DNA from: Felixounavirus AN17P8
Length of the DNA: 64,000 nt
Strand: one strand, 5' to 3'
Sequence record: OZ035742.1
This document shows, one piece after another, positions 23,520-62,157 of the stretch (positions within the stretch are counted from its first letter, which is position 1; every line of letters starts with the position of its first letter). The translations under genes and the position numbers were made by a program. The notes beneath the pieces were generated by a model. It was not told the DNA's origin, did no database searches, and worked only from the letters and a program-made list of their open reading frames with translations.

Positions 23520-23552
23520 TTTTAAGGCTCCTTTTTACGGGAGCCTTTTTTG
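23520..23552. terminator. bidirectional rho-independent terminator
   Basis: hairpin aggctcc-tttttacg-ggagcct flanked by A-run upstream and T-run downstream, between convergent gene blocks. Confidence 0.65.
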
Positions 23553-28646: not shown

Positions 28647-28783
28647 GGTAGATTTTTAACGTGGCTACTACCATCCACCCATACCTCACCTAACAACACC
28701 TAACAACACAAAACTACACCCCACACCACCGCACCACACCAAACATCACTTAAAAACCTTCTTAGAAGACTCTTAAGTGATGC
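28647..28783. repeat. composite structured non-coding element, copy C
   Basis: hairpin 1 with third stem variant (ggtag / loop atttttaacgtggcta / ctacc), box cccatacctcacc, nearly G-free C+A tract, hairpin 2 almost identical to copy A (one substitution). Confidence 0.65.
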
Positions 28784-28847
28784 TGGTGAGTACCCGTTGG
28801 TTTATGCTGCTCAGTATACTCACCAAATTTTCTATGTCAACAACTTT

Positions 28848-29987
28848 TTATTCGTAGTCTCGAATAACTAACCCGACAGGGAACTGTAAAGACCCCTTAC
28901 GAGTCATCTTCTGGAACTGAACCGTTAAAGGCTTCCCGATAAACTCTTCAGGATGCTCAGCAAGATACTGTTTCTTCTCATGAGTAGTCTTCCATGAGAC
29001 ATCTACAAAGACGTTAGGGAGGGTCTCTACAACGAACTTGCCATGACCACGCTTATCAGTCTTTACACCAGTCACTTTAAACTCTTCAGTGTGCATCTTC
29101 TTGTGTTTAATCAAGAAGTATGAACGGTGACAACACTCATAGAAGGAGTCTTCAGAGATTGAACGGTACATTGCACCTTCAAACTTAGCTTCAACCCACT
29201 TATCATGAGCTTCATCAAACTCTTCCCAAGAATTTACACGACGAGATTTAACAGGAACAACTCTACAGCCGTCTCTAAAGTCATTCAATGGTGAAGTCTC
29301 AATAATATCTCTACGCTCAGGCCACGTCTTAGTACTGTCACAGATATCGTACCAGTAAAACTTGAGTAGGTGTCGGTCAGGATTGTCTTCATTTTTAATC
29401 ATGGAGACAATATCTTCTAAGTCCTGCCCATGAGCATAAATCTCACCATCAAATTCATCAACATCTTTGTGGAGCCTTAACATTGCCATAATGTCAGGTA
29501 TTAGCTCAGTAGGAATTTTATAAACAGTATTCTCACGAGAGTATGCTGTAAATACACTACCGATGCTCAAGTGTCTTGAAATTCTACAACGGACACCATC
29601 AAGTTTTGGTTGAGCATCAGCAGGGAACTTCAGGTACTTCGCATGACTAACCTTTGCAGCATCATGAGCAAGCTGTACACCTACCTTCTCAGTATTCTGT
29701 GCAGACTCTTTTGTGTAAGCATAACCTTTACGGTCAACTTGCTTTTTATACTTAGCAGCAACTTCAAAGAGAGCTTGCTGTTCAGCGTTACGCTCATTCT
29801 TTTTACCGATGTTTTTAGGTTCTGCTGTATACTCTTCAAACATCATCTTGCCATTTTCTTTACCATAGGTTGTAATAACTTTGTCACCTACAGCAACGCA
29901 TGACCAGACGTTGAAAGAGCCATCTTTATTTTGTTTGTATAGGATTGTCATTTTATTCCTCTGAGTGATACCAAGTGTTGCAAGCAT
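28848..29987 (-). CDS. ATP-dependent DNA ligase
   Basis: 379 aa; KxDG adenylation motif PKLDGVRC; size and context similar to T7/T4-type ligases. Confidence 0.6.
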   Translation of the reverse strand: MLATLGITQRNKMTILYKQNKDGSFNVWSCVAVGDKVITTYGKENGKMMFEEYTAEPKNIGKKNERNAEQQALFEVAAKYKKQVDRKGYAYTKESAQNTEKVGVQLAHDAAKVSHAKYLKFPADAQPKLDGVRCRISRHLSIGSVFTAYSRENTVYKIPTELIPDIMAMLRLHKDVDEFDGEIYAHGQDLEDIVSMIKNEDNPDRHLLKFYWYDICDSTKTWPERRDIIETSPLNDFRDGCRVVPVKSRRVNSWEEFDEAHDKWVEAKFEGAMYRSISEDSFYECCHRSYFLIKHKKMHTEEFKVTGVKTDKRGHGKFVVETLPNVFVDVSWKTTHEKKQYLAEHPEEFIGKPLTVQFQKMTRKGSLQFPVGLVIRDYE

Positions 29988-31172: not shown

Positions 31173-31223
31173 AATCCCTCCTATATAAGATATTGTATAA
31201 GGTACTCTTCCATGAGCACCTTG

Positions 31224-31757
31224 TCAAGATAGTTTTGCAAACTCTCCGTGGAGTTTAATAGCAGCTTCACAGTAAGCTTTATGGGCTTCTTCTGGTGTGT
31301 CATGGTAACCTAAAAACATCTTCTTACCTTTATAACTTATCTGTGCGACCCACTTACCAGACTTCTTTTTAAGACTTACACCCTTGTACCCAGATTTATT
31401 GGTGACTGGTTTACCTTTATTCCAAGCACTTTGAAAATCATCTGCTTCCCTTAAGTTTACAATCCTGTTGTCAAGCGAGTCTCCGTTGATATGGTCAATG
31501 ATACCTTTTGGCATCTTGCCATACACGTAAAGCCATGCGAGTCTGTGTGCTTTATGTGCTTTCTTGTCAAAATAGATACTAATCTGTTTATGACCACTTG
31601 AATCAGTCTGGATATTACCTGCCACCTTTCCTGCATAATTACTGTTAAAAACACTAACAGCTCTTGATTTACCTTCTCTACGAAGCCAAGTAAAGACCCC
31701 TGTTTCGGGGTCATAGTGCAGCAGCTCCTTTAAACGTTTTTGTAAAATTAAATCCAT
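31224..31757 (-). CDS. HNH homing endonuclease with AP2-like DNA-binding domain
   Basis: 177 aa; IIDHINGDSLDNRIVNLREAD (HNH_3-type) and C-terminal YKGVS...GKWVAQISY...HGEFA; paralogous to 53909-54400. Confidence 0.6.
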   Translation of the reverse strand: MDLILQKRLKELLHYDPETGVFTWLRREGKSRAVSVFNSNYAGKVAGNIQTDSSGHKQISIYFDKKAHKAHRLAWLYVYGKMPKGIIDHINGDSLDNRIVNLREADDFQSAWNKGKPVTNKSGYKGVSLKKKSGKWVAQISYKGKKMFLGYHDTPEEAHKAYCEAAIKLHGEFAKLS

Positions 31758-31760
31758 TAA

Positions 31761-34490
31761 TCAATGTACCTCATACCAGCTCTTACCAACCTTTGCTGTA
31801 CCAGTTACAAGTGTTTCTTTCCTCAAACCTAAGTTTTTTGAAGCTTGTCCATACATCCAGTCAGCAATTGCTTTCATATCATGTGTCATACCCTCTGGAC
31901 ATTCCCAACTATTTTCATCGTGATATGCCAGAAGTAACCTTGCTCCGATAGCTGGTTTTCGAGCATTCAGTTTTGTCAGGCCATCTTCACAGGCTTTTCT
32001 TGCTGCTAGGTTGATGGCCTCATTCTGAATCTGTGCTTCCGAACTCATCAGGAGGTAGTTCAGTAGTTTATGTGGAGATTTGCACCATATCCATGCTCCA
32101 GCGACCCTGATATAACCACCTTTAGCAATTGAAGAATTCTTCCCAAAAACCTCTTCCAGAGCCTTTTTAGACGCCTTAAAATCGGCTTCTAAGCTATCAA
32201 GTAACTTCTTAATCTTTGGCAGACGCATATAGTAAGTTTGTTTAGTCAATGCACCTTCTTCCGTAGATGATGCCTTGATAGTTTTTGCAAACTTCTCGTC
32301 TCCGGCTCCAAATAACAGGGCGTAGATGCCATTTTTGCTCTTCTTACGGCCTTTTGTAATCTCGTGAAGAAGTTCCTCATCCTGTGTCTCCCTACAACGA
32401 ACAATATCTTCTTCCTTGTTCAGACCAAAGTAAATACTGTTCAGTGTATGCGCATCAGTCCCTGTGTAGACTTCATAGAGGTCGTTCTCAGCATCATAAC
32501 GAAGATACTTGTCAGTTTCTGGATTAAGATACTTATCGAGATGCTTGCAATAGTATCTGCCATCCTCTTGCTTAGTGAACTCTACTGACTCTTTACCCTC
32601 AGTTACTGCTTTAGTGAAGTCTTCATCACCCATAAAGTTACAAAGGAGAACTAGCTGGGCTGAGTTCATATCAACGGAGACTACGTTGGTTCCTTCCTCG
32701 CAAATCCACACCTCCCTCATAGGCGCTCCATAGACAGCAGCACCAGATGGTACGTTTACAATACCATATTGTGTCATACGTCCAGTTGAAGTACCAAACA
32801 CCATTGCACCAGCACTAAGGCGACCATCAGGACGAATCTGGTTCAACCAACCTTTTTCATCATCTTTTGAGTTCTCAATAGTTCTGCGTCGGTGCATTAA
32901 AGTATAGTACTTAGCAATCTTCTGTCCAAGCTCACCTTCAATCGTATCATAAGATGATTCAGTAAGTTTTGGTGAAGTACGGATTAAGCAAGGCTCAAGC
33001 AAATCTGTGTATTTCTTCACAGACCAGTTATGCTCAATGTACTGTACACCTTCATGTTCAACATAACTCAAACCACATCGTTCCACCATTTCCTGCCACT
33101 TAGGATGTTTTGTAATCATCTTTTTATTGTCTTTGAAACGACAAACTTTGACAGGGCGACCGTCTGAGTCTTTCTTGTAGTTCCAGTCATCTGGAATCCA
33201 ACCAACTGATTTCAAGTAGTCTTTAACAACTGCTACCTGAGTCATACGAGAAACTTCGAACTCAATTGGTGTATATGGTGCATCAATCAAACCTGTGTAG
33301 CGACTTGACTCAAGTTCAAAGTGGTTAACAACGTGACTGTTATAGTACTTCACAGTTTTGACTGTTTTTACTGGCTTCCAGTCTTTGCATTTCTTACCAA
33401 TCTTTGCGTTCAACTCATTGCAAATTGCACGAGCATCCTTCATTGCTACAAAACCTTCCTTGTACTCTTCACCAGTTACAGTGTTGGTTGGTGTATAGCA
33501 ATTTCTCTTTTCAATGTTAAAAATCTTTGTAGTTGGCTTACCAAATGGTTTGATTTCGTATGTCTGCATCTCGCCATTACGTACCTGCTGACGATACTTT
33601 GTCTTAGGGTACTTGGTAATTCTTTTCAGTCCATCTGCATGACCAAATGTTTCAACATACTCATTCCAAGCTTTTGCAAACTCTTCTCCAGTGACTTTAC
33701 CTTTGGTCTTAATAGTTGGAGGCAGATGTGGTTCAACCTCTGAAGCAAGCTCATTAGTCAACTTGTCAAGTTCCTTTACATGGAACTCCATAAGCCCCTT
33801 ATCAGCTTTCCAACCATTGATAGCTTGTTGACTCATCCAGAAAGATGTTTCTTTAGCTCGCATGTAGGTTTCATAAGTGTCTATGCCACACTTCTTAAGC
33901 TTGAGATACTCATTATCAAGTGCCCGTTTAGTTTTGGCGTTAATACGGATATCTTCTACAACACGAGTGAAGATTTCTGCATTCCACACACCCCAATGCT
34001 CAATCTCTGGCTTACGAACACCAACACGAGCACCCCAAGCAGCCAAGCCATGAGCACCTTTATAACCCTTTGGAGTTGGTCTATCCATCCACTGAACACG
34101 AGACTGGATAAGAGAGTCCTGAAAGAAATTACTCCACGGTTTACACTTTGGATTATCAAAGTTCCATAAATCAGGTGCAATGTGATTGAAAACCCACCAG
34201 TCATAACCGAGACCATTATGGATGCAAAGACGTTTTGCCTTTAACGCAAATTCAACACCTTCACGTAAACCACCCTTGATGTACTTAGTGTACTTGTGAC
34301 CGAGGATAGGCTCATCTGTAAAGACCCATACAGGTGGCTCTTCATCGTCAGATTTATAGTCTGCGAAAGCCATTACGTGAACTTTAGTGAACTCAAGGAG
34401 TAAACCATCAGTTTCTGTATCACCAACCAAATGTAAGTTTTTAAAATCTACGTTTTCCATTTTTACTCCCTCTAAAATCATTAACCCCAT
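31761..34490 (-). CDS. DNA polymerase, family A, with 3'-5' exonuclease domain
   Basis: 909 aa; exo motif GDTETDG; family A motif A VSVDMNSAQLVLL, motif B KNGIYALLFGAG, motif C LLAYHDENSWE. Confidence 0.85.
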   Translation of the reverse strand: MGLMILEGVKMENVDFKNLHLVGDTETDGLLLEFTKVHVMAFADYKSDDEEPPVWVFTDEPILGHKYTKYIKGGLREGVEFALKAKRLCIHNGLGYDWWVFNHIAPDLWNFDNPKCKPWSNFFQDSLIQSRVQWMDRPTPKGYKGAHGLAAWGARVGVRKPEIEHWGVWNAEIFTRVVEDIRINAKTKRALDNEYLKLKKCGIDTYETYMRAKETSFWMSQQAINGWKADKGLMEFHVKELDKLTNELASEVEPHLPPTIKTKGKVTGEEFAKAWNEYVETFGHADGLKRITKYPKTKYRQQVRNGEMQTYEIKPFGKPTTKIFNIEKRNCYTPTNTVTGEEYKEGFVAMKDARAICNELNAKIGKKCKDWKPVKTVKTVKYYNSHVVNHFELESSRYTGLIDAPYTPIEFEVSRMTQVAVVKDYLKSVGWIPDDWNYKKDSDGRPVKVCRFKDNKKMITKHPKWQEMVERCGLSYVEHEGVQYIEHNWSVKKYTDLLEPCLIRTSPKLTESSYDTIEGELGQKIAKYYTLMHRRRTIENSKDDEKGWLNQIRPDGRLSAGAMVFGTSTGRMTQYGIVNVPSGAAVYGAPMREVWICEEGTNVVSVDMNSAQLVLLCNFMGDEDFTKAVTEGKESVEFTKQEDGRYYCKHLDKYLNPETDKYLRYDAENDLYEVYTGTDAHTLNSIYFGLNKEEDIVRCRETQDEELLHEITKGRKKSKNGIYALLFGAGDEKFAKTIKASSTEEGALTKQTYYMRLPKIKKLLDSLEADFKASKKALEEVFGKNSSIAKGGYIRVAGAWIWCKSPHKLLNYLLMSSEAQIQNEAINLAARKACEDGLTKLNARKPAIGARLLLAYHDENSWECPEGMTHDMKAIADWMYGQASKNLGLRKETLVTGTAKVGKSWYEVH

Positions 34491-35959: not shown

Positions 35960-35985
35960 AGGCCCCCTTAGTTGGGGGCTTTTTA
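35960..35985 (+). terminator. rho-independent terminator
   Basis: hairpin gccccc-ttagtt-gggggc followed by TTTTT. Confidence 0.6.
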
Positions 35986-52220: not shown

Positions 52221-52736
52221 ATGTATCTGTCAAACCTGAAACGTTCGGCTGCAATGTCAGTTCTAAGACTCAGCTTTGAGGAACGTCAAGAGTTCATTGA
52301 CTCCCACCAATACGACCCTTCTAACTCGAATCACATGGTTCTTTGGAATCGTGATAACTTCCGTGAAAGAGCACTTGTCCGTTATTACCCACACTACACA
52401 ATAGATAACCTGTATGAATGGTGTGTTGTGAAGAACACTATTGCAACACTGAACAATCTTTGCAGGTATACAGGTAAGCAAGCATTTACATTAGGCCACC
52501 ACAAACCTGTTACAAAGGGTGGTGAGCATCACTGCGCAAACTGGTTTATCCAGACTAAACTTGATAACCAGAAGCAAGGGGATAACCTTCTAAGCACACC
52601 TAAGATGACCTATGAAGAGCAAGAGAAATATGTCAAAAATAATATGCCAGATGTGCTTGACAACAACTATACAGATTTGGCAATATCTCTCCTGTTGAAG
52701 TTCGAGACAGTTTATAGGGCAACTTACAATGGCTAA
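52221..52736 (+). CDS. hypothetical protein (possible HNH-type nuclease)
   Basis: 171 aa; GHHKPVTKGGEHHCANW...N..Q loosely resembles an HNH motif. Confidence 0.3.
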   Translation: MYLSNLKRSAAMSVLRLSFEERQEFIDSHQYDPSNSNHMVLWNRDNFRERALVRYYPHYTIDNLYEWCVVKNTIATLNNLCRYTGKQAFTLGHHKPVTKGGEHHCANWFIQTKLDNQKQGDNLLSTPKMTYEEQEKYVKNNMPDVLDNNYTDLAISLLLKFETVYRATYNG

Positions 52737-53007
52737 AGAGAAGTGGGAGATTTTACCATTAGTCAGTGAAGGCGGTAATGGTTGTGAAATGTACATGATA
52801 CGTGGTCATGTTCCAGAACCAATTGCACTTGAGATGGTAAACAACTTTACAGATGGCTCTTACAAAGACTTAGGGGAGCCAACTATAAAGCAGCAATGGG
52901 TAAAGCCTGTACCAGACAGCACAGGTAACTGTAGTGTACTTTATCACGTTGTAGACCCTGTAAAATGCAAATCTGCAATGGCAGTAACAAATGTAACTTT
53001 TGATTGA
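52729..53007 (+). CDS. hypothetical protein
   Basis: 92 aa ORF. Confidence 0.3.
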   Translation: MAKEKWEILPLVSEGGNGCEMYMIRGHVPEPIALEMVNNFTDGSYKDLGEPTIKQQWVKPVPDSTGNCSVLYHVVDPVKCKSAMAVTNVTFD

Positions 53008-53900
53008 GAGAGAAAACTATGAAAACATCTATCCGTGTTACAGTTCATTCACCAACTAAAGGGACTCATGAAGAAGAGTTTAACATCGTCCAATTTCCTT
53101 CTGGTGAGATTGGTGGACATTTTTCACCAGAGTTTGTTGACTTTACTGCTTATGCTGCATCATCCATCAACAACGTGATTATGATTGTAAAGGGTTATGA
53201 CAAAGACACATTATTTGCTGTGGCACTTGCTAAAGAGGCAATTGATGATTTAGTACCTCATAAGTTTGCTATGAAGACTGCTATCTTTTACTATTTGCCA
53301 AATGCACGTTACGACCGTCACATGTTTAAAGGTGATGCAGCAGCTTTGAAAGTGTTTGCACAACAGGTTAATGCAATGGGTTTTGATGCAGTCTGTGCAG
53401 TTGACCCTCACAGTTGCGTTCCAGATAACCTGTTTAACTGCTTCCAGAGTATTCCTCAAAAGGAGATTGCAGTTCACTATGCAAATGACCCTCTGATTGA
53501 TTACTTAGTAGCCCCAGATGCAGGTGCAGCTAAGAAGATTGCAGAGACTGCTAAAGAGGTGGATAAACCATATATCACAATGTCTAAAGTGCGTAACCTT
53601 AAGACTGGTGAGATTACGGGTATGCGAATCCTTGATGATGTTGATTTGACAGATAAAACCGTCATGATTCTGGATGATATCTGTGATGGTGGTCGAACCT
53701 TCGTAGAAGCAGCAAAACATCTTCGTGAAGCAGGTGCAAAACGTGTGGAACTTTATGTAACACATGGTATCTTCTCTAAAGATGTTGAAAACCTTCTTGA
53801 CAATGGTATTGACCATATCTACACTACAAACTCTTTAGGGGAAGCTAAAGACCGTGGATTAGCACATTATGCCCAAGTTACTGTAGCAAACCTTGATTAG
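53004..53900 (+). CDS. ribose-phosphate pyrophosphokinase-like (PRPP synthetase family; candidate ADP-ribose pyrophosphate synthetase)
   Basis: 298 aa; PRTase motif VMILDDICDGGRTFVEAAKHLREAGAKRVELYVTHGIFS aligns with E. coli Prs CVLVDDMIDTGGTL...GAKRVFAYATHPIFS. Confidence 0.75.
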   Translation: MREKTMKTSIRVTVHSPTKGTHEEEFNIVQFPSGEIGGHFSPEFVDFTAYAASSINNVIMIVKGYDKDTLFAVALAKEAIDDLVPHKFAMKTAIFYYLPNARYDRHMFKGDAAALKVFAQQVNAMGFDAVCAVDPHSCVPDNLFNCFQSIPQKEIAVHYANDPLIDYLVAPDAGAAKKIAETAKEVDKPYITMSKVRNLKTGEITGMRILDDVDLTDKTVMILDDICDGGRTFVEAAKHLREAGAKRVELYVTHGIFSKDVENLLDNGIDHIYTTNSLGEAKDRGLAHYAQVTVANLD

Positions 53901-53908
53901 GTAATAGT

Positions 53909-54400
53909 GTGAATAAGGGTTATTTTGAAAAATACCTAATATATGAACCAGATACAGGTTTATTAATTTGGAGAGTAACCCTTTGCAGTACCGCTATTGC
54001 TGGTAATGTGGCTGGCACAAGGTCTAAGAAGGGTTATATCCAAGTCCAGATAAATAAGAAGAGGTACTATGCACATAATATTGCATGGATTATGTCTGGA
54101 GGTGAGATACCAAGTGGATATGAGGTAGACCACATAGACCTTGATAAAGCTAATAATAAGTTGGAGAATTTAAGACTTAGCACAAAGTCACAAAATCAGA
54201 GAAATAGGGGTATACACAAGAATAATAAAACTGGTGTGAAGGGTGTAAGTTTTTGTAAACAAACAGGTCTTTACAAAGCAAGAGTCATGCTTTACTATAA
54301 AGAATACTTTTGTGGAAGATTTAAAACGGTAGAAGAAGCAAAAGAAGCTGTAATTAAAAAGCGAATAGAACTTCATGGTGAGTTTGCAAGACATAACTAA
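53909..54400 (+). CDS. HNH homing endonuclease with AP2-like domain
   Basis: 163 aa; YEVDHIDLDKANNKLENLRLSTKSQN and GVKGVSF...HGEFA; paralogous to 31224-31757; inserted between Prs-like and NAMPT-like genes. Confidence 0.6.
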   Translation: MNKGYFEKYLIYEPDTGLLIWRVTLCSTAIAGNVAGTRSKKGYIQVQINKKRYYAHNIAWIMSGGEIPSGYEVDHIDLDKANNKLENLRLSTKSQNQRNRGIHKNNKTGVKGVSFCKQTGLYKARVMLYYKEYFCGRFKTVEEAKEAVIKKRIELHGEFARHN

Positions 54401-54414
54401 GAGAGAGATAAAAT

Positions 54415-56196
54415 ATGAGTAAGTCACTTTACGCAGTACCAGCAGGTCTTAATGCAGATGCTTACAAGGCATCACATATATATCAGTATCCAGATGCTAC
54501 GCAATATCTTATGTTGAACCTAACACCACGTAGCGACAAATGGTTTAACAGTCCTTTAGCAATTGATGGTGTAGTGGCTTTTGGTATTCAACGTTTTGTT
54601 AAAGATTACTTGATAGACCACTGGAACGCCACTTTCTTTGAACGTGATAAAAAAGAAGCAATTGACGAAATCTTAGAAGTTATGAATGGTGTTCTGGGTA
54701 AAGATGCTATCGGTCGAGAGCATTGGGAAGCACTTCACGACTTAGGCTATCTACCAGTTGAAGTGTACGCTGTAGAAGAAGGTACAGTTGTTCCTATGCG
54801 TGTCCCAATGATTGTCTTCCAGAACACTGTTTCAGGTTTCCATTGGGTAGCAGGTTATCTGGAAGACGCTTTCTCTGCTGAGATTTGGAAGGCTTGCACC
54901 ATTGCAACTATTGCATTGCACTACAAACGTATCTGTAAGAAGTGGGCTGACCTCACTTGCGACAACGACTTGCATTTACCTTATCAGTGCCATGACTTTG
55001 CTATGCGTGGTATGTCCGGCTTTACTGATGACGCATTCAACGCTGTAGGACACTTAACCAGCTTTAAAGGGACTGATAGCTTCCCTGCTGTATACACGGC
55101 TAAACGTATCTATGGGCAGACCTATCCAATCTCTGATATTGGAAGCTCTGTACCAGCCACTGAACACTCTGTAATGTGTGCAAACATTGCTTGGGAAGGT
55201 GGTAACGAGTTGGTTGAAGAAGAAAGACGATTTAAAGGTGAGTTGCAAACCTTCCGTCGTTTCTTAACAGAAACTTACCCAACTGGTATTGCAAGTATTG
55301 TTTCAGATACTTATAACTTCTGGAGAACTGTGTCAGAAATCTTACCAGCACTTCGTAAAGAAATTATGGAACGTGACGGTAAGCTGGTAATTCGCCCTGA
55401 CTCTGGAGACCCTGTACACATTGTCACAGGTTATAAAGCAATCCACTTAGAGTGTGCTAAGAAGGCTTATTATGAGCACCTAAGCAAGCTGGAAGCTAGT
55501 GACACAATGTTGAATGCTGTTCTGAACATGAAGCTTGAAAACATCAACTATGGTATTGCTGGATGGCTACTGTCAGAAGGCTACGAAATGGTTGTTGACA
55601 GAGAAGACTTTGAAGTTGCTGATACAGTGATGTTGAAAAATGCTTATATGGTCGGTTCTGCAAACGTTGTAACACGTCCTGTAGCTGAAATTGATGGAGC
55701 TATTAAGACACTGTACAACATCTTTGGGGGAACTATTAACTCTAAAGGGTTTAAGGTACTGGATGAACATATCGGCCTTATCTATGGTGACTCTATCACG
55801 CTGGAACGTGCAAACGAAATCCTGAAGCGTCTGTATGAAATGGGTTTTGCAAGCTCTAACGTAGTGTTTGGTGTAGGCTCTTACACTTACCAGTACATGA
55901 CTCGTGACACCTTTGCATTTGCTGTCAAAGCAACTCTTGCAAGCATTGGTGGTAAAGAGATTATGCTTGCAAAAGACCCTAAAACAGATAGTGGTGTTAA
56001 GAAGTCTGCCTTTGGTGGTGTAGCACCTATGTGGGACGGTGATAAGCTGAAAGCTGTAGATGGATATGGATTCCAGAGTTTTGCAGATGTACTTGACCAC
56101 CCAGCCTGTGCTTTACGTTTAGTCTTTAGTGACTCTGAGCAGTTCGGTTACACGACTCTTGGTGATATTCGAAATAATATTGACAAGCAGCTTTAA
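54415..56196 (+). CDS. nicotinamide phosphoribosyltransferase-like (NAMPT family; candidate nicotinamide ADP-ribose transferase)
   Basis: 593 aa; DAYKASHIYQYP, HDFAMRGMSG, SFKGTDS, VSDTYN, IRPDSGDP, IYGDSI align with conserved NAMPT motifs (DSYKVTHYKQYP, HDFGYRG, NFKGTDT, VSDSYD, IRPDSGNP, IQGDGV). Confidence 0.8.
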   Translation: MSKSLYAVPAGLNADAYKASHIYQYPDATQYLMLNLTPRSDKWFNSPLAIDGVVAFGIQRFVKDYLIDHWNATFFERDKKEAIDEILEVMNGVLGKDAIGREHWEALHDLGYLPVEVYAVEEGTVVPMRVPMIVFQNTVSGFHWVAGYLEDAFSAEIWKACTIATIALHYKRICKKWADLTCDNDLHLPYQCHDFAMRGMSGFTDDAFNAVGHLTSFKGTDSFPAVYTAKRIYGQTYPISDIGSSVPATEHSVMCANIAWEGGNELVEEERRFKGELQTFRRFLTETYPTGIASIVSDTYNFWRTVSEILPALRKEIMERDGKLVIRPDSGDPVHIVTGYKAIHLECAKKAYYEHLSKLEASDTMLNAVLNMKLENINYGIAGWLLSEGYEMVVDREDFEVADTVMLKNAYMVGSANVVTRPVAEIDGAIKTLYNIFGGTINSKGFKVLDEHIGLIYGDSITLERANEILKRLYEMGFASSNVVFGVGSYTYQYMTRDTFAFAVKATLASIGGKEIMLAKDPKTDSGVKKSAFGGVAPMWDGDKLKAVDGYGFQSFADVLDHPACALRLVFSDSEQFGYTTLGDIRNNIDKQL

Positions 56197-56210: not shown

Positions 56211-56233
56211 AGGCTCCTACGGGAGCCTTTTTA
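56211..56233 (+). terminator. rho-independent terminator
   Basis: hairpin aggctcc-tacg-ggagcct followed by TTTTT. Confidence 0.6.
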
Positions 56234-62134: not shown

Positions 62135-62157
62135 AGGCTCCTTCGGGAGCCTTTTTC
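62135..62157 (+). terminator. rho-independent terminator
   Basis: hairpin ggctcc-ttcg-ggagcc followed by TTTTT. Confidence 0.65.

Follow-up and report, generated by a model that had tools for sequence, protein, structure and literature searches.

The free-standing homing endonuclease genes (HEGs) of T4-like phages are, as Edgell, Gibb and Belfort reportedly described in 2010, mobilized by intron-less homing. Within this group, Seg proteins are GIY-YIG enzymes, while Mob proteins are HNH enzymes without an AP2 domain. The HNH-AP2 endonucleases, including one from phage Felix O1, were reported in 2004 by Magnani, as cited in PMC5318435. Six HNH endonuclease genes are present in the Felix O1 genome (PMC3185647), and homing endonucleases are found among the variable genes in comparative papers on Felixounavirus (PMC8300805, PMC6669636). 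With respect to genomic location, Barth et al. (2023) examined the IPA-HNH class, which consists of HNH-AP2 HEGs from phages, and found 29% of them beside DNA polymerase genes; HEGs at large mark boundaries of genetic exchange (PMC10448857). In Skunavirus, distinct HNH endonucleases occur at one location, and marker exclusion has been shown (PMC12724721).

The DNA analysed here, referred to as the window, is a 64,000-nucleotide stretch (sequence record OZ035742.1) of a Felixounavirus, one of the myoviruses resembling Felix O1 that infect Salmonella, Escherichia and Shigella. Roughly 260 GenBank phage records match two of its regions at 90–97% identity, and each region holds a gene, termed HEG1 and HEG2, respectively. 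On comparative grounds, both are probably homing endonuclease genes of the free-standing (intron-less) kind, and they belong to the HNH-AP2 family. They belong to a known and previously annotated kind of element: their equivalents in the matching GenBank records are labeled “HNH endonuclease” or “homing endonuclease”, and both proteins match phrog_99 “HNH endonuclease” (1.3e-72 for HEG1 and 1.7e-67 for HEG2). The additions made here are modest and consist of a multi-allelic hot spot with shared modules, a conserved rare-codon hairpin, and a Ser110 variant of the nuclease. The genes concerned are as follows.

31224–31757, minus strand: HEG1, a free-standing HNH_3 plus AP2 endonuclease gene (177 aa, ATG start)
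31761–34490, minus strand: pol, the gene for a family A DNA polymerase (909 aa, uninterrupted, Pfam DNA_pol_A)
53909–54400, plus strand: HEG2, a free-standing HNH_3 plus AP2-like endonuclease gene (163 aa, GTG start)
53004–53900, plus strand: Prs-like (ribose-phosphate pyrophosphokinase) gene, the upstream flank of HEG2 (Pfam Pribosyltran/Pribosyl_synth, GenBank annotation)
54415–56196, plus strand: NAMPT-like gene, the downstream flank of HEG2 (Pfam NAPRTase/NAMPT_N)

An earlier note, made from the letters of the window, had described HEG1 as an HNH_3/AP2-type gene packed 3 bp from the polymerase stop. Both the Pfam matches and the spacing bear this out: the pol TGA (31763–31761) is followed by TTA and then by the HEG1 ATG at 31757, so that the minus strand reads GTA CAT TGA TTA ATG GAT across the junction; the note leaves out that HEG1 and pol both lie on this strand. 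The same note placed a paralogue between the Prs-like and NAMPT-like genes and remarked on a common HGEFA ending. The location and the ending (LHGEFAKLS versus LHGEFARHN, with LHGEFA common to both) hold, while the word “paralogue” appears to fit only loosely. The two proteins align end to end with 36% identity (E 5e-31), many metagenomic proteins are nearer to HEG1 (50–58% identity) than HEG2 is, and the pair is better regarded as members of one family than as recent duplicates. No third HNH-AP2 copy was found in the 64-kb window.

Each HEG has its own start and stop codons and lies between intact neighboring genes. The start of HEG2 is GTG here and ATG in six orthologues. No Rfam intron was found at the HEG1 or HEG2 sites in the three relatives scanned. 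Open reading frames were intact in all 23 occupied loci, and pairwise dN/dS values were low, i.e., 0.13–0.15 within the HEG1 lineage (dS 0.6–1.4), 0.05–0.08 in the other lineages at the same site, and 0.11–0.17 in HEG2. Both genes are thus under purifying selection and appear to encode functional proteins rather than to be decaying remnants.

The N-terminal part of both proteins is an HNH nuclease domain like that of I-HmuI, and the C-terminal part is an AP2 DNA-binding domain in HEG1 and an AP2-like region in HEG2. The domains of HEG1 map as follows.

31419–31553, minus strand: HNH (beta-beta-alpha-metal) nuclease core of HEG1, aa 69–113, with D88, H89, N101, S110 and N113
31245–31394, minus strand: AP2 DNA-binding domain of HEG1, aa 122–171 (Pfam AP2, 47 bits)

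Against Pfam cutoffs of 24.8 bits for HNH_3 (PF13392) and 33.3 bits for AP2 (PF00847), HEG1 scored 54.4 bits (9.3e-15) and 47 bits (3.1e-12), respectively, with the HNH_3 match ending at position 38 of the 46 in the profile. The HNH_3 match of HEG2 is stronger (3.7e-19, 68.5 bits), and its AP2 match (5.4e-4, 20.6 bits) falls under the cutoff; HEG2 aligns with HEG1 across the entire AP2 region and matches phrog_99 from end to end. When a profile of 49 family members was compared with the PDB, it matched I-HmuI (1u3e, E 8.7e-7) as well as plant AP2/ERF domains (WRI1, 3.5e-12). A phmmer search of the PDB with HEG1 matched the AP2 domain of WRI1 (7wq5, 3.6e-7), and the same search with HEG2 gave no match, I-HmuI being reached only with the family profile. 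The AlphaFold2 model of HEG1 (pLDDT 94.5) contains a beta-beta-alpha unit comprising strands 86–89 and 102–105 and helix 107–112. Its best PDB match by Foldseek is I-HmuI 1u3e (probability 0.99), with a low TM-score (0.37) that probably stems from a differing orientation of the two domains. The AP2 domain superimposes on that of AtERF1 (1gcc, GCC-box binding) with an rmsd of 1.1 Å over 51 columns (probability 1.00).

In I-HmuI, the residues responsible for catalysis are D74, H75 and N96 (PMC12724721). In the alignment, D88/H89 of HEG1 correspond to D74/H75, N101 to N87, S110 to N96, and N113 to N99. The Asp-His pair and the structural Asn (D88, H89 and N101 in HEG1) are invariant in 49 of 49 aligned family members, as is N113 across the family. 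In HEG2 the numbering of D74, H75, N87, N96 and N99 is identical to that of I-HmuI, with N96 lying in the motif SQN, and retention of D74, H75, N87 and N96 points to a canonical active site. The N96 column holds Asn in 42 of the 49 members and Ser in seven, the latter being confined to proteins in or near the HEG1 lineage. All of that lineage (P0001–P0008, L005, L018) has Ser at the S110 position. With Ser110 at a metal-ligand position, the nuclease of HEG1 could be weakened, or HEG1 could be a nickase or a binder. An Asp106-Asp107 pair is also specific to the lineage and lies three and four residues before S110, one helical turn upstream; it could act as a substitute metal ligand.

The insertion site of HEG1 (site 1) was compared in 31 IMG/VR loci retrieved via the polymerase C-terminus. 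It was empty in 12 and occupied in 19. HEG1 itself (lineage A) was present at 98–99% protein identity in three loci and at 73–85% in three more, while the remaining 13 occupied loci held other HNH-AP2 genes that are 47–53% identical to HEG1 and form three further lineages. A second sample was drawn from Felixounavirus records in GenBank with a HEG-deleted junction as the query, by taking rows evenly down the ranking; it gave 29 occupied and 23 empty sites (n = 52). Overall, ~55% of relatives have an HNH-AP2 gene of one of at least four divergent lineages downstream of pol, and the remainder show a clean empty site. DNA of the HEG1 type is found in 57 GenBank records.

An empty site 1 consists of the pol stop, TTAGTA and TTGACA. 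All of the HEG lineages at this site are inserted into one 6-bp gap between the pol stop and the TTGACA element, and the stop codon of HEG1 (TGA, 31226–31224) forms part of the TTGACA hexamer. The hexamer opens a conserved intergenic element.

31173–31227, minus strand: conserved intergenic element downstream of site 1, beginning with TTGACA, single copy in the window

Where site 1 is empty, the element starts 6 bp after the pol stop. It holds an inverted repeat, AAGGTGCTC/GAGTACCTT (31222–31199), as well as the ribosome-binding site of the next gene, and compensatory changes are seen in the element of L023/L024. A reading of TTGACA as a sigma-70 −35 box was rejected, since the best −10-like hexamers are 22 nt off or match at only three of six positions. 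The promoter scan reported no promoter at the element, and the window holds no further copies of it such as a repeated phage promoter would have.

The lineages at site 1 also have the last 65–100 nt of the HEG nearly identical. Site 1 is a multi-allelic hot spot, at which HNH-AP2 lineages appear to replace each other as cassettes. Taken alone, the site 1 polymorphism is compatible with either gain or precise loss of HEG1 and does not separate the two.

The second insertion site (site 2), between prs and NAMPT, is more often empty. HEG2 was present in six of 28 IMG/VR loci and missing from the other 22, in 61 of ~256 GenBank records (~24%), and in 15 of 59 rows in an evenly spaced GenBank sample, the other 44 being empty; none of those 59 rows held an alternative occupant. 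Comparison with relatives had been named in the earlier note as one way to check its proposal, and presence of both genes at the same loci in all relatives as counting against it; the comparison shows that neither gene is universal. The states of the two sites assort independently across contigs. At both, the junctions, whether occupied or empty, can be placed to the single base and do not differ from clade to clade. An empty site 2 holds an intrinsic-terminator-like hairpin, GGGGCTTnAAAGCCCC-ATTTT, and HEG2 sits in its place. The first codons of NAMPT differ as well, reading ATGAGT..TAC in genomes with HEG2 and ATGACT..TAT in genomes without it.

Two Moogle-like phages (L076 and L078) reveal how HEG2 relates to its flanks. 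Their Prs and NAMPT proteins are ~75% identical to those of the window, versus ~90% for HEG2. In a sliding comparison of L078 with the window, nucleotide identity is 70–85% in the flanks and 87–96% inside HEG2. Over the 100 nt after HEG2, L078 shares 96% identity with the window but just 76% with its HEG-less sibling L079; beyond this tract, L078 reverts to 93–100% identity with L079. A HEG and adjoining 100 nt that are window-like, followed by sibling-like sequence, argue that L078 acquired HEG2 horizontally together with a short co-converted tract, i.e., the first ~70–100 nt of NAMPT.

A related pattern is seen on the polymerase side of HEG1.

31761–32660, minus strand: divergent 3′-terminal pol allele linked to HEG1 (sliding identity and segment table)

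From its start to ~32700, pol is 95–100% identical in most Felix-like relatives and 83–86% identical in a divergent clade. In contrast, the last ~900 nt are 70–80% identical in most relatives and reach 97–100% only in the HEG1 carriers L001, L002 and L025, plus L022. In GenBank, flanks with at least 95% identity occur in 59 of 273 records, a number that matches the 57 records with HEG1-type DNA. L022 keeps to 99–100% identity with the window as far as the pol stop; a HEG of lineage B follows, and identity is back at 95% over the last ~100 nt of that HEG, a structure best read as cassette replacement. L009–L011 change allele within pol at ~32300. At about window position 32320, the pol gene of L025 contains a group I intron (Rfam RF00028, 62 bits), and other relatives have ~800 bp of inserted DNA with a gene for an endonuclease VII-type protein. 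The pol 3′ end in this genus is thus bracketed by two mobile-element sites, and the divergent 3′ allele could alternatively owe its arrival to the endonuclease encoded by the intron that relatives carry at ~32320.

A small inverted repeat within HEG1 is common to every lineage at site 1.

31695–31712, minus strand: hairpin GACCCC-GAAACA-GGGGTC in the 5′ coding region of HEG1, covering codons D16 P17 .. G20 V21

The hairpin starts 45 nt into the ORF, is terminator-like by scan, and folds as predicted. Its general form, GACCCC-N6-GGGGTC, occurs in 19 of 19 occupied site 1 loci at 33–51 nt after the pol stop; it is absent from all other Felixounavirus loci examined and occurs once in the window. 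The stem encodes D-P-x-x-G-V of the family motif YDPxTGV with rare codons (CCC, 3% of Pro; GGG, 8% of Gly; GTC, 10% of Val; joint usage 9e-5). When eight representatives of the lineages were aligned, no stretch of 5 nt or more within the first 480 positions was invariant apart from the two stem arms and GACCA, the latter belonging to the Asp-His codons. Stem codons are invariant in four of four cases, compared with two of 21 other codons of invariant residues (Fisher p 0.0012).

Two simpler accounts of the hairpin were rejected. It is not a mere footprint of the peptide YDPETGVF: the counterpart in HEG2 (YEPDTGLL) is written GAA CCA ... GGT TTA and forms no hairpin, the rare stem codons are invariant, and 19 of the 21 other codons vary. 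Nor was it homogenized by gene conversion in the manner of the 3′ tail, since the codons that flank the stem differ between lineages. The RNA fold of the whole region at the HEG1 start is no more stable than shuffled controls (z −0.47), and the local hairpin alone is notable. Among the other perfect GC-rich 6-bp hairpins of the window, four of six are followed by a T-run and are terminator-like. We infer that the HEG1 hairpin is a selected cis element. Because the scan found no promoter-like site on the HEG1 strand within ~340 nt upstream, it would most likely serve to terminate or attenuate transcripts that read through from pol. Alternatively, it may be a candidate binding site for the AP2 domain, as AP2 domains are reported to favor GC-rich DNA (PMC10448857, which cites Magnani 2004). 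The GGGGC/GCCCC terminator hairpin replaced by HEG2 is likewise a candidate part of the HEG2 target.

A sequence of events can be proposed from these data. HEG1 would probably depend on the pol transcript for its expression, either by read-through or by coupling, because it has no promoter-like site of its own and begins 3 bp after the pol stop, and the GC-rich hairpin would probably attenuate this expression. In a co-infected cell, the enzyme would recognize a long site in a HEG-less genome and nick or cut there. The most likely target would be the pol 3′ end or pol-downstream junction in the case of HEG1, and the prs-NAMPT intergenic terminator hairpin plus the NAMPT start in the case of HEG2. 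To our knowledge, no member of the HNH-AP2 family has a mapped target in a Felixounavirus. Recombinational repair from the HEG carrier would then copy the HEG and adjacent sequence into the recipient, a step that the comparative data support. The carrier genome would be protected, its own site being both interrupted and different in sequence. Empty sites in relatives, the discordance of HEG2 with its flanks, the association of HEG1 with a particular pol 3′ allele, the swap in L022, and purifying selection on both ORFs are comparative signatures of free-standing homing endonuclease genes. The earlier proposal of intron-less homing beside conserved essential genes is supported as far as homing is concerned; Prs and NAMPT, however, are conserved auxiliary genes that are not proven essential.

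Two other explanations deserve weighing against homing by both genes. One is that HEG1, with its Ser110, no longer homes and is a domesticated or impaired DNA binder (for instance, a regulator using its AP2 domain to bind GC-rich sites) or only a strand-specific nickase, kept because it is useful or harmless. The exchange of the I-HmuI N96 for Ser throughout the lineage, where 42 of 49 family members have Asn, would fit such a history, as would the early end of the HNH_3 match at profile position 38 of 46; a dN/dS of 0.13–0.15 at dS 0.6–1.4 indicates that the protein does something, and I-HmuI is itself a nickase (PMC3017599). D88, H89, N101 and N113 are nevertheless invariant, and Asp106-Asp107, one helical turn before S110, could replace the missing ligand. 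The gene is also missing from most relatives, hence it has no core function, and its tight linkage to a foreign-looking pol 3′ allele is as expected of homing with co-conversion. Loss of homing by HEG1 is accordingly judged unlikely.

Still less credit is given to the view that the two genes are static accessory genes (“morons”), whose patchiness would result from ordinary recombination or deletion among co-circulating Felixounaviruses with no present-day homing. The genomes are indeed mosaic at many HEG-free places, with sharp identity drops near window positions ~35490 and 29555, and again farther downstream within those alignments; the GTG start of HEG2 in this genome is weak, and homing is itself deduced from comparison of sequences. 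Ordinary recombination, however, would hardly account for occupied and empty junctions that are base-precise and the same across clades, for a HEG2 whose conservation between clades exceeds that of its flanks and which moves with a short flanking tract, or for the convergence of four HEG lineages on one 6-bp gap. Intact ORFs and purifying selection in all 23 occupied loci, and membership in an established HEG family, likewise weigh against it, and static accessory genes are regarded as very improbable. Homing by both genes remains the preferred reading.

A more speculative elaboration, held only tentatively and with doubt predominating, is that site 1 is a “HEG cassette dock” used by at least four lineages with shared hairpin and 3′ modules, in which the cis hairpin is selected and the Ser110 variant site is functional. 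As a terminator or attenuator, the hairpin could restore 3′-end formation of the pol transcript and throttle HEG expression; as a GC-rich AP2 site, it could instead serve in autoregulation or in competition between alleles. The shared modules may be homology arms by which rival endonuclease alleles displace one another, and Ser110 with Asp106-Asp107 may provide an HNH enzyme with a different but working metal site.

Typing and biocontrol of Salmonella and E. coli make use of Felix O1-like phages. Homing endonuclease genes decide which alleles win in a co-infection, and here these include part of a DNA polymerase gene. Such genes thereby shape mosaicism, and they could skew the results obtained with phage cocktails or engineered crosses. 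The HNH-AP2 family also connects the nucleases of phages with the origin of a plant DNA-binding domain, AP2/ERF.

HEG1 and HEG2 can be compared with four described systems. They have a nuclease core in common with I-HmuI and I-BasI of the Bacillus phages SPO1 and Bastille, and I-HmuI shares with HEG1 an association with a phage DNA polymerase gene. I-HmuI differs, however, in residing within a group I intron and in having another C-terminal DNA-binding module, whereas HEG1 and HEG2 are free-standing and carry AP2; it has N96 where HEG1 has Ser. Moreover, I-HmuI is a proven nickase (PMC3017599), while the nucleases of HEG1 and HEG2 are predicted and known here from sequence.

The seg and mob genes of T4-like phages (e.g., those for SegG and MobE) resemble the present pair in being intergenic ORFs between conserved genes, with presence or absence varying among close relatives. 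Co-converted flanking markers and localized divergence of the neighboring gene are found with the T4-like free-standing HEGs, as they are here. In T4, homing and marker exclusion have been shown experimentally, whereas for HEG1 and HEG2 they are deduced from comparisons. The I-HmuI-like HNH endonucleases of lactococcal Skunavirus also vary in number and position among close relatives, with distinct lineages sharing one insertion location, and they are enriched in the replication module (PMC12724721). They belong to a different host and phage group, an AP2 domain is not reported, and marker exclusion was demonstrated there via plasmid expression (PMC12724721).

The fourth system is that of the HNH-AP2 homing endonucleases themselves (Magnani et al. 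2004; Wuitschick et al. 2004; IPA-HNH), which have the same N-terminal HNH and C-terminal AP2 arrangement. Felix O1 is among the founding examples of the group (PMC5318435). The IPA-HNH proteins of ICP1-like phages differ in having an HNH domain too divergent for the Pfam HNH_3 model, which HEG1 and HEG2 match directly. Like HEG1, HNH-AP2 HEGs often adjoin DNA polymerase genes and exchange boundaries (PMC10448857), and the “HEG island” picture drawn in the same paper finds a likeness in the Felixounavirus pol 3′ end, situated between two mobile-element sites.

In HEG1, the free-standing HNH_3 and AP2 endonuclease gene just downstream of the family A DNA polymerase gene (pol), the final 65–100 nt (3′ end, window 31224–31320) are nearly invariant in nucleotide sequence across HEG lineages whose proteins are otherwise only 47–53% identical. 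This stretch encodes EEAHKAYCEAAIKLHGEFAKLS, and its near-invariance among such divergent lineages indicates that the boundary of the exchanged cassette falls within the open reading frame. Beyond the insertion site lies another conserved feature.

31173–31227, minus strand: highly conserved intergenic element of ~55 nt, downstream of the insertion site

The element begins with TTGACA, canonical sigma-70 spacing is absent from it, and it contains a 9-bp inverted repeat, AAGGTGCTC/GAGTACCTT. In two distant relatives (L023 and L024) the repeat reads AGGATGCACA/TGTGTATCTT, with pairing preserved.

The polymerase gene itself is uninterrupted in the window and is split in relatives at the position equivalent to ~32320 (minus strand), the same site at which the allele breakpoints of L009–L011 fall. 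Two kinds of insert are found in pol.

L025, 4281–4564: 268-bp group I intron without an ORF (Rfam RF00028, 62 bits)
L026–L030 (L026, 3200–4000): insert of ~800 bp whose product is a 160-aa protein of the endonuclease VII type (phrog_307, 3e-42)

Multiple alignment with relatives also revealed large insertions or deletions at window ~30140, ~29958, and ~28720–28855, and the DNA ligase gene (28848–29987) is annotated as two or three pieces in GenBank relatives. Together, these observations suggest that additional intron or HEG insertion sites may exist just downstream of the pol region.

HEG2, the second HNH_3 and AP2-like gene, starts with GTG in the window (53909–53911), and all six of its IMG/VR orthologues carry ATG at that position; the GTG may point to lowered expression or early decay. 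A further ORF lies upstream.

52221–52736, plus strand: ORF of 171 aa, two genes before prs

Its product matches phrog_3500 (unknown function) and, weakly, the HNH endonuclease family phrog_2214 (6.8e-6), with no Pfam match at E ≤ 0.01. The ORF could represent a third HNH-type gene, a divergent one.

Solely as a comparison set for the GC-rich hairpin within the 5′ coding region of HEG1 (31695–31712, minus strand), we used four hairpins of the window.

56212–56227, 23526–23545, 35962–35979, and 62136–62151: perfect GC-rich hairpins followed by T-runs

All four are typical of intrinsic terminators, and one occurs 16 nt past the NAMPT stop codon.
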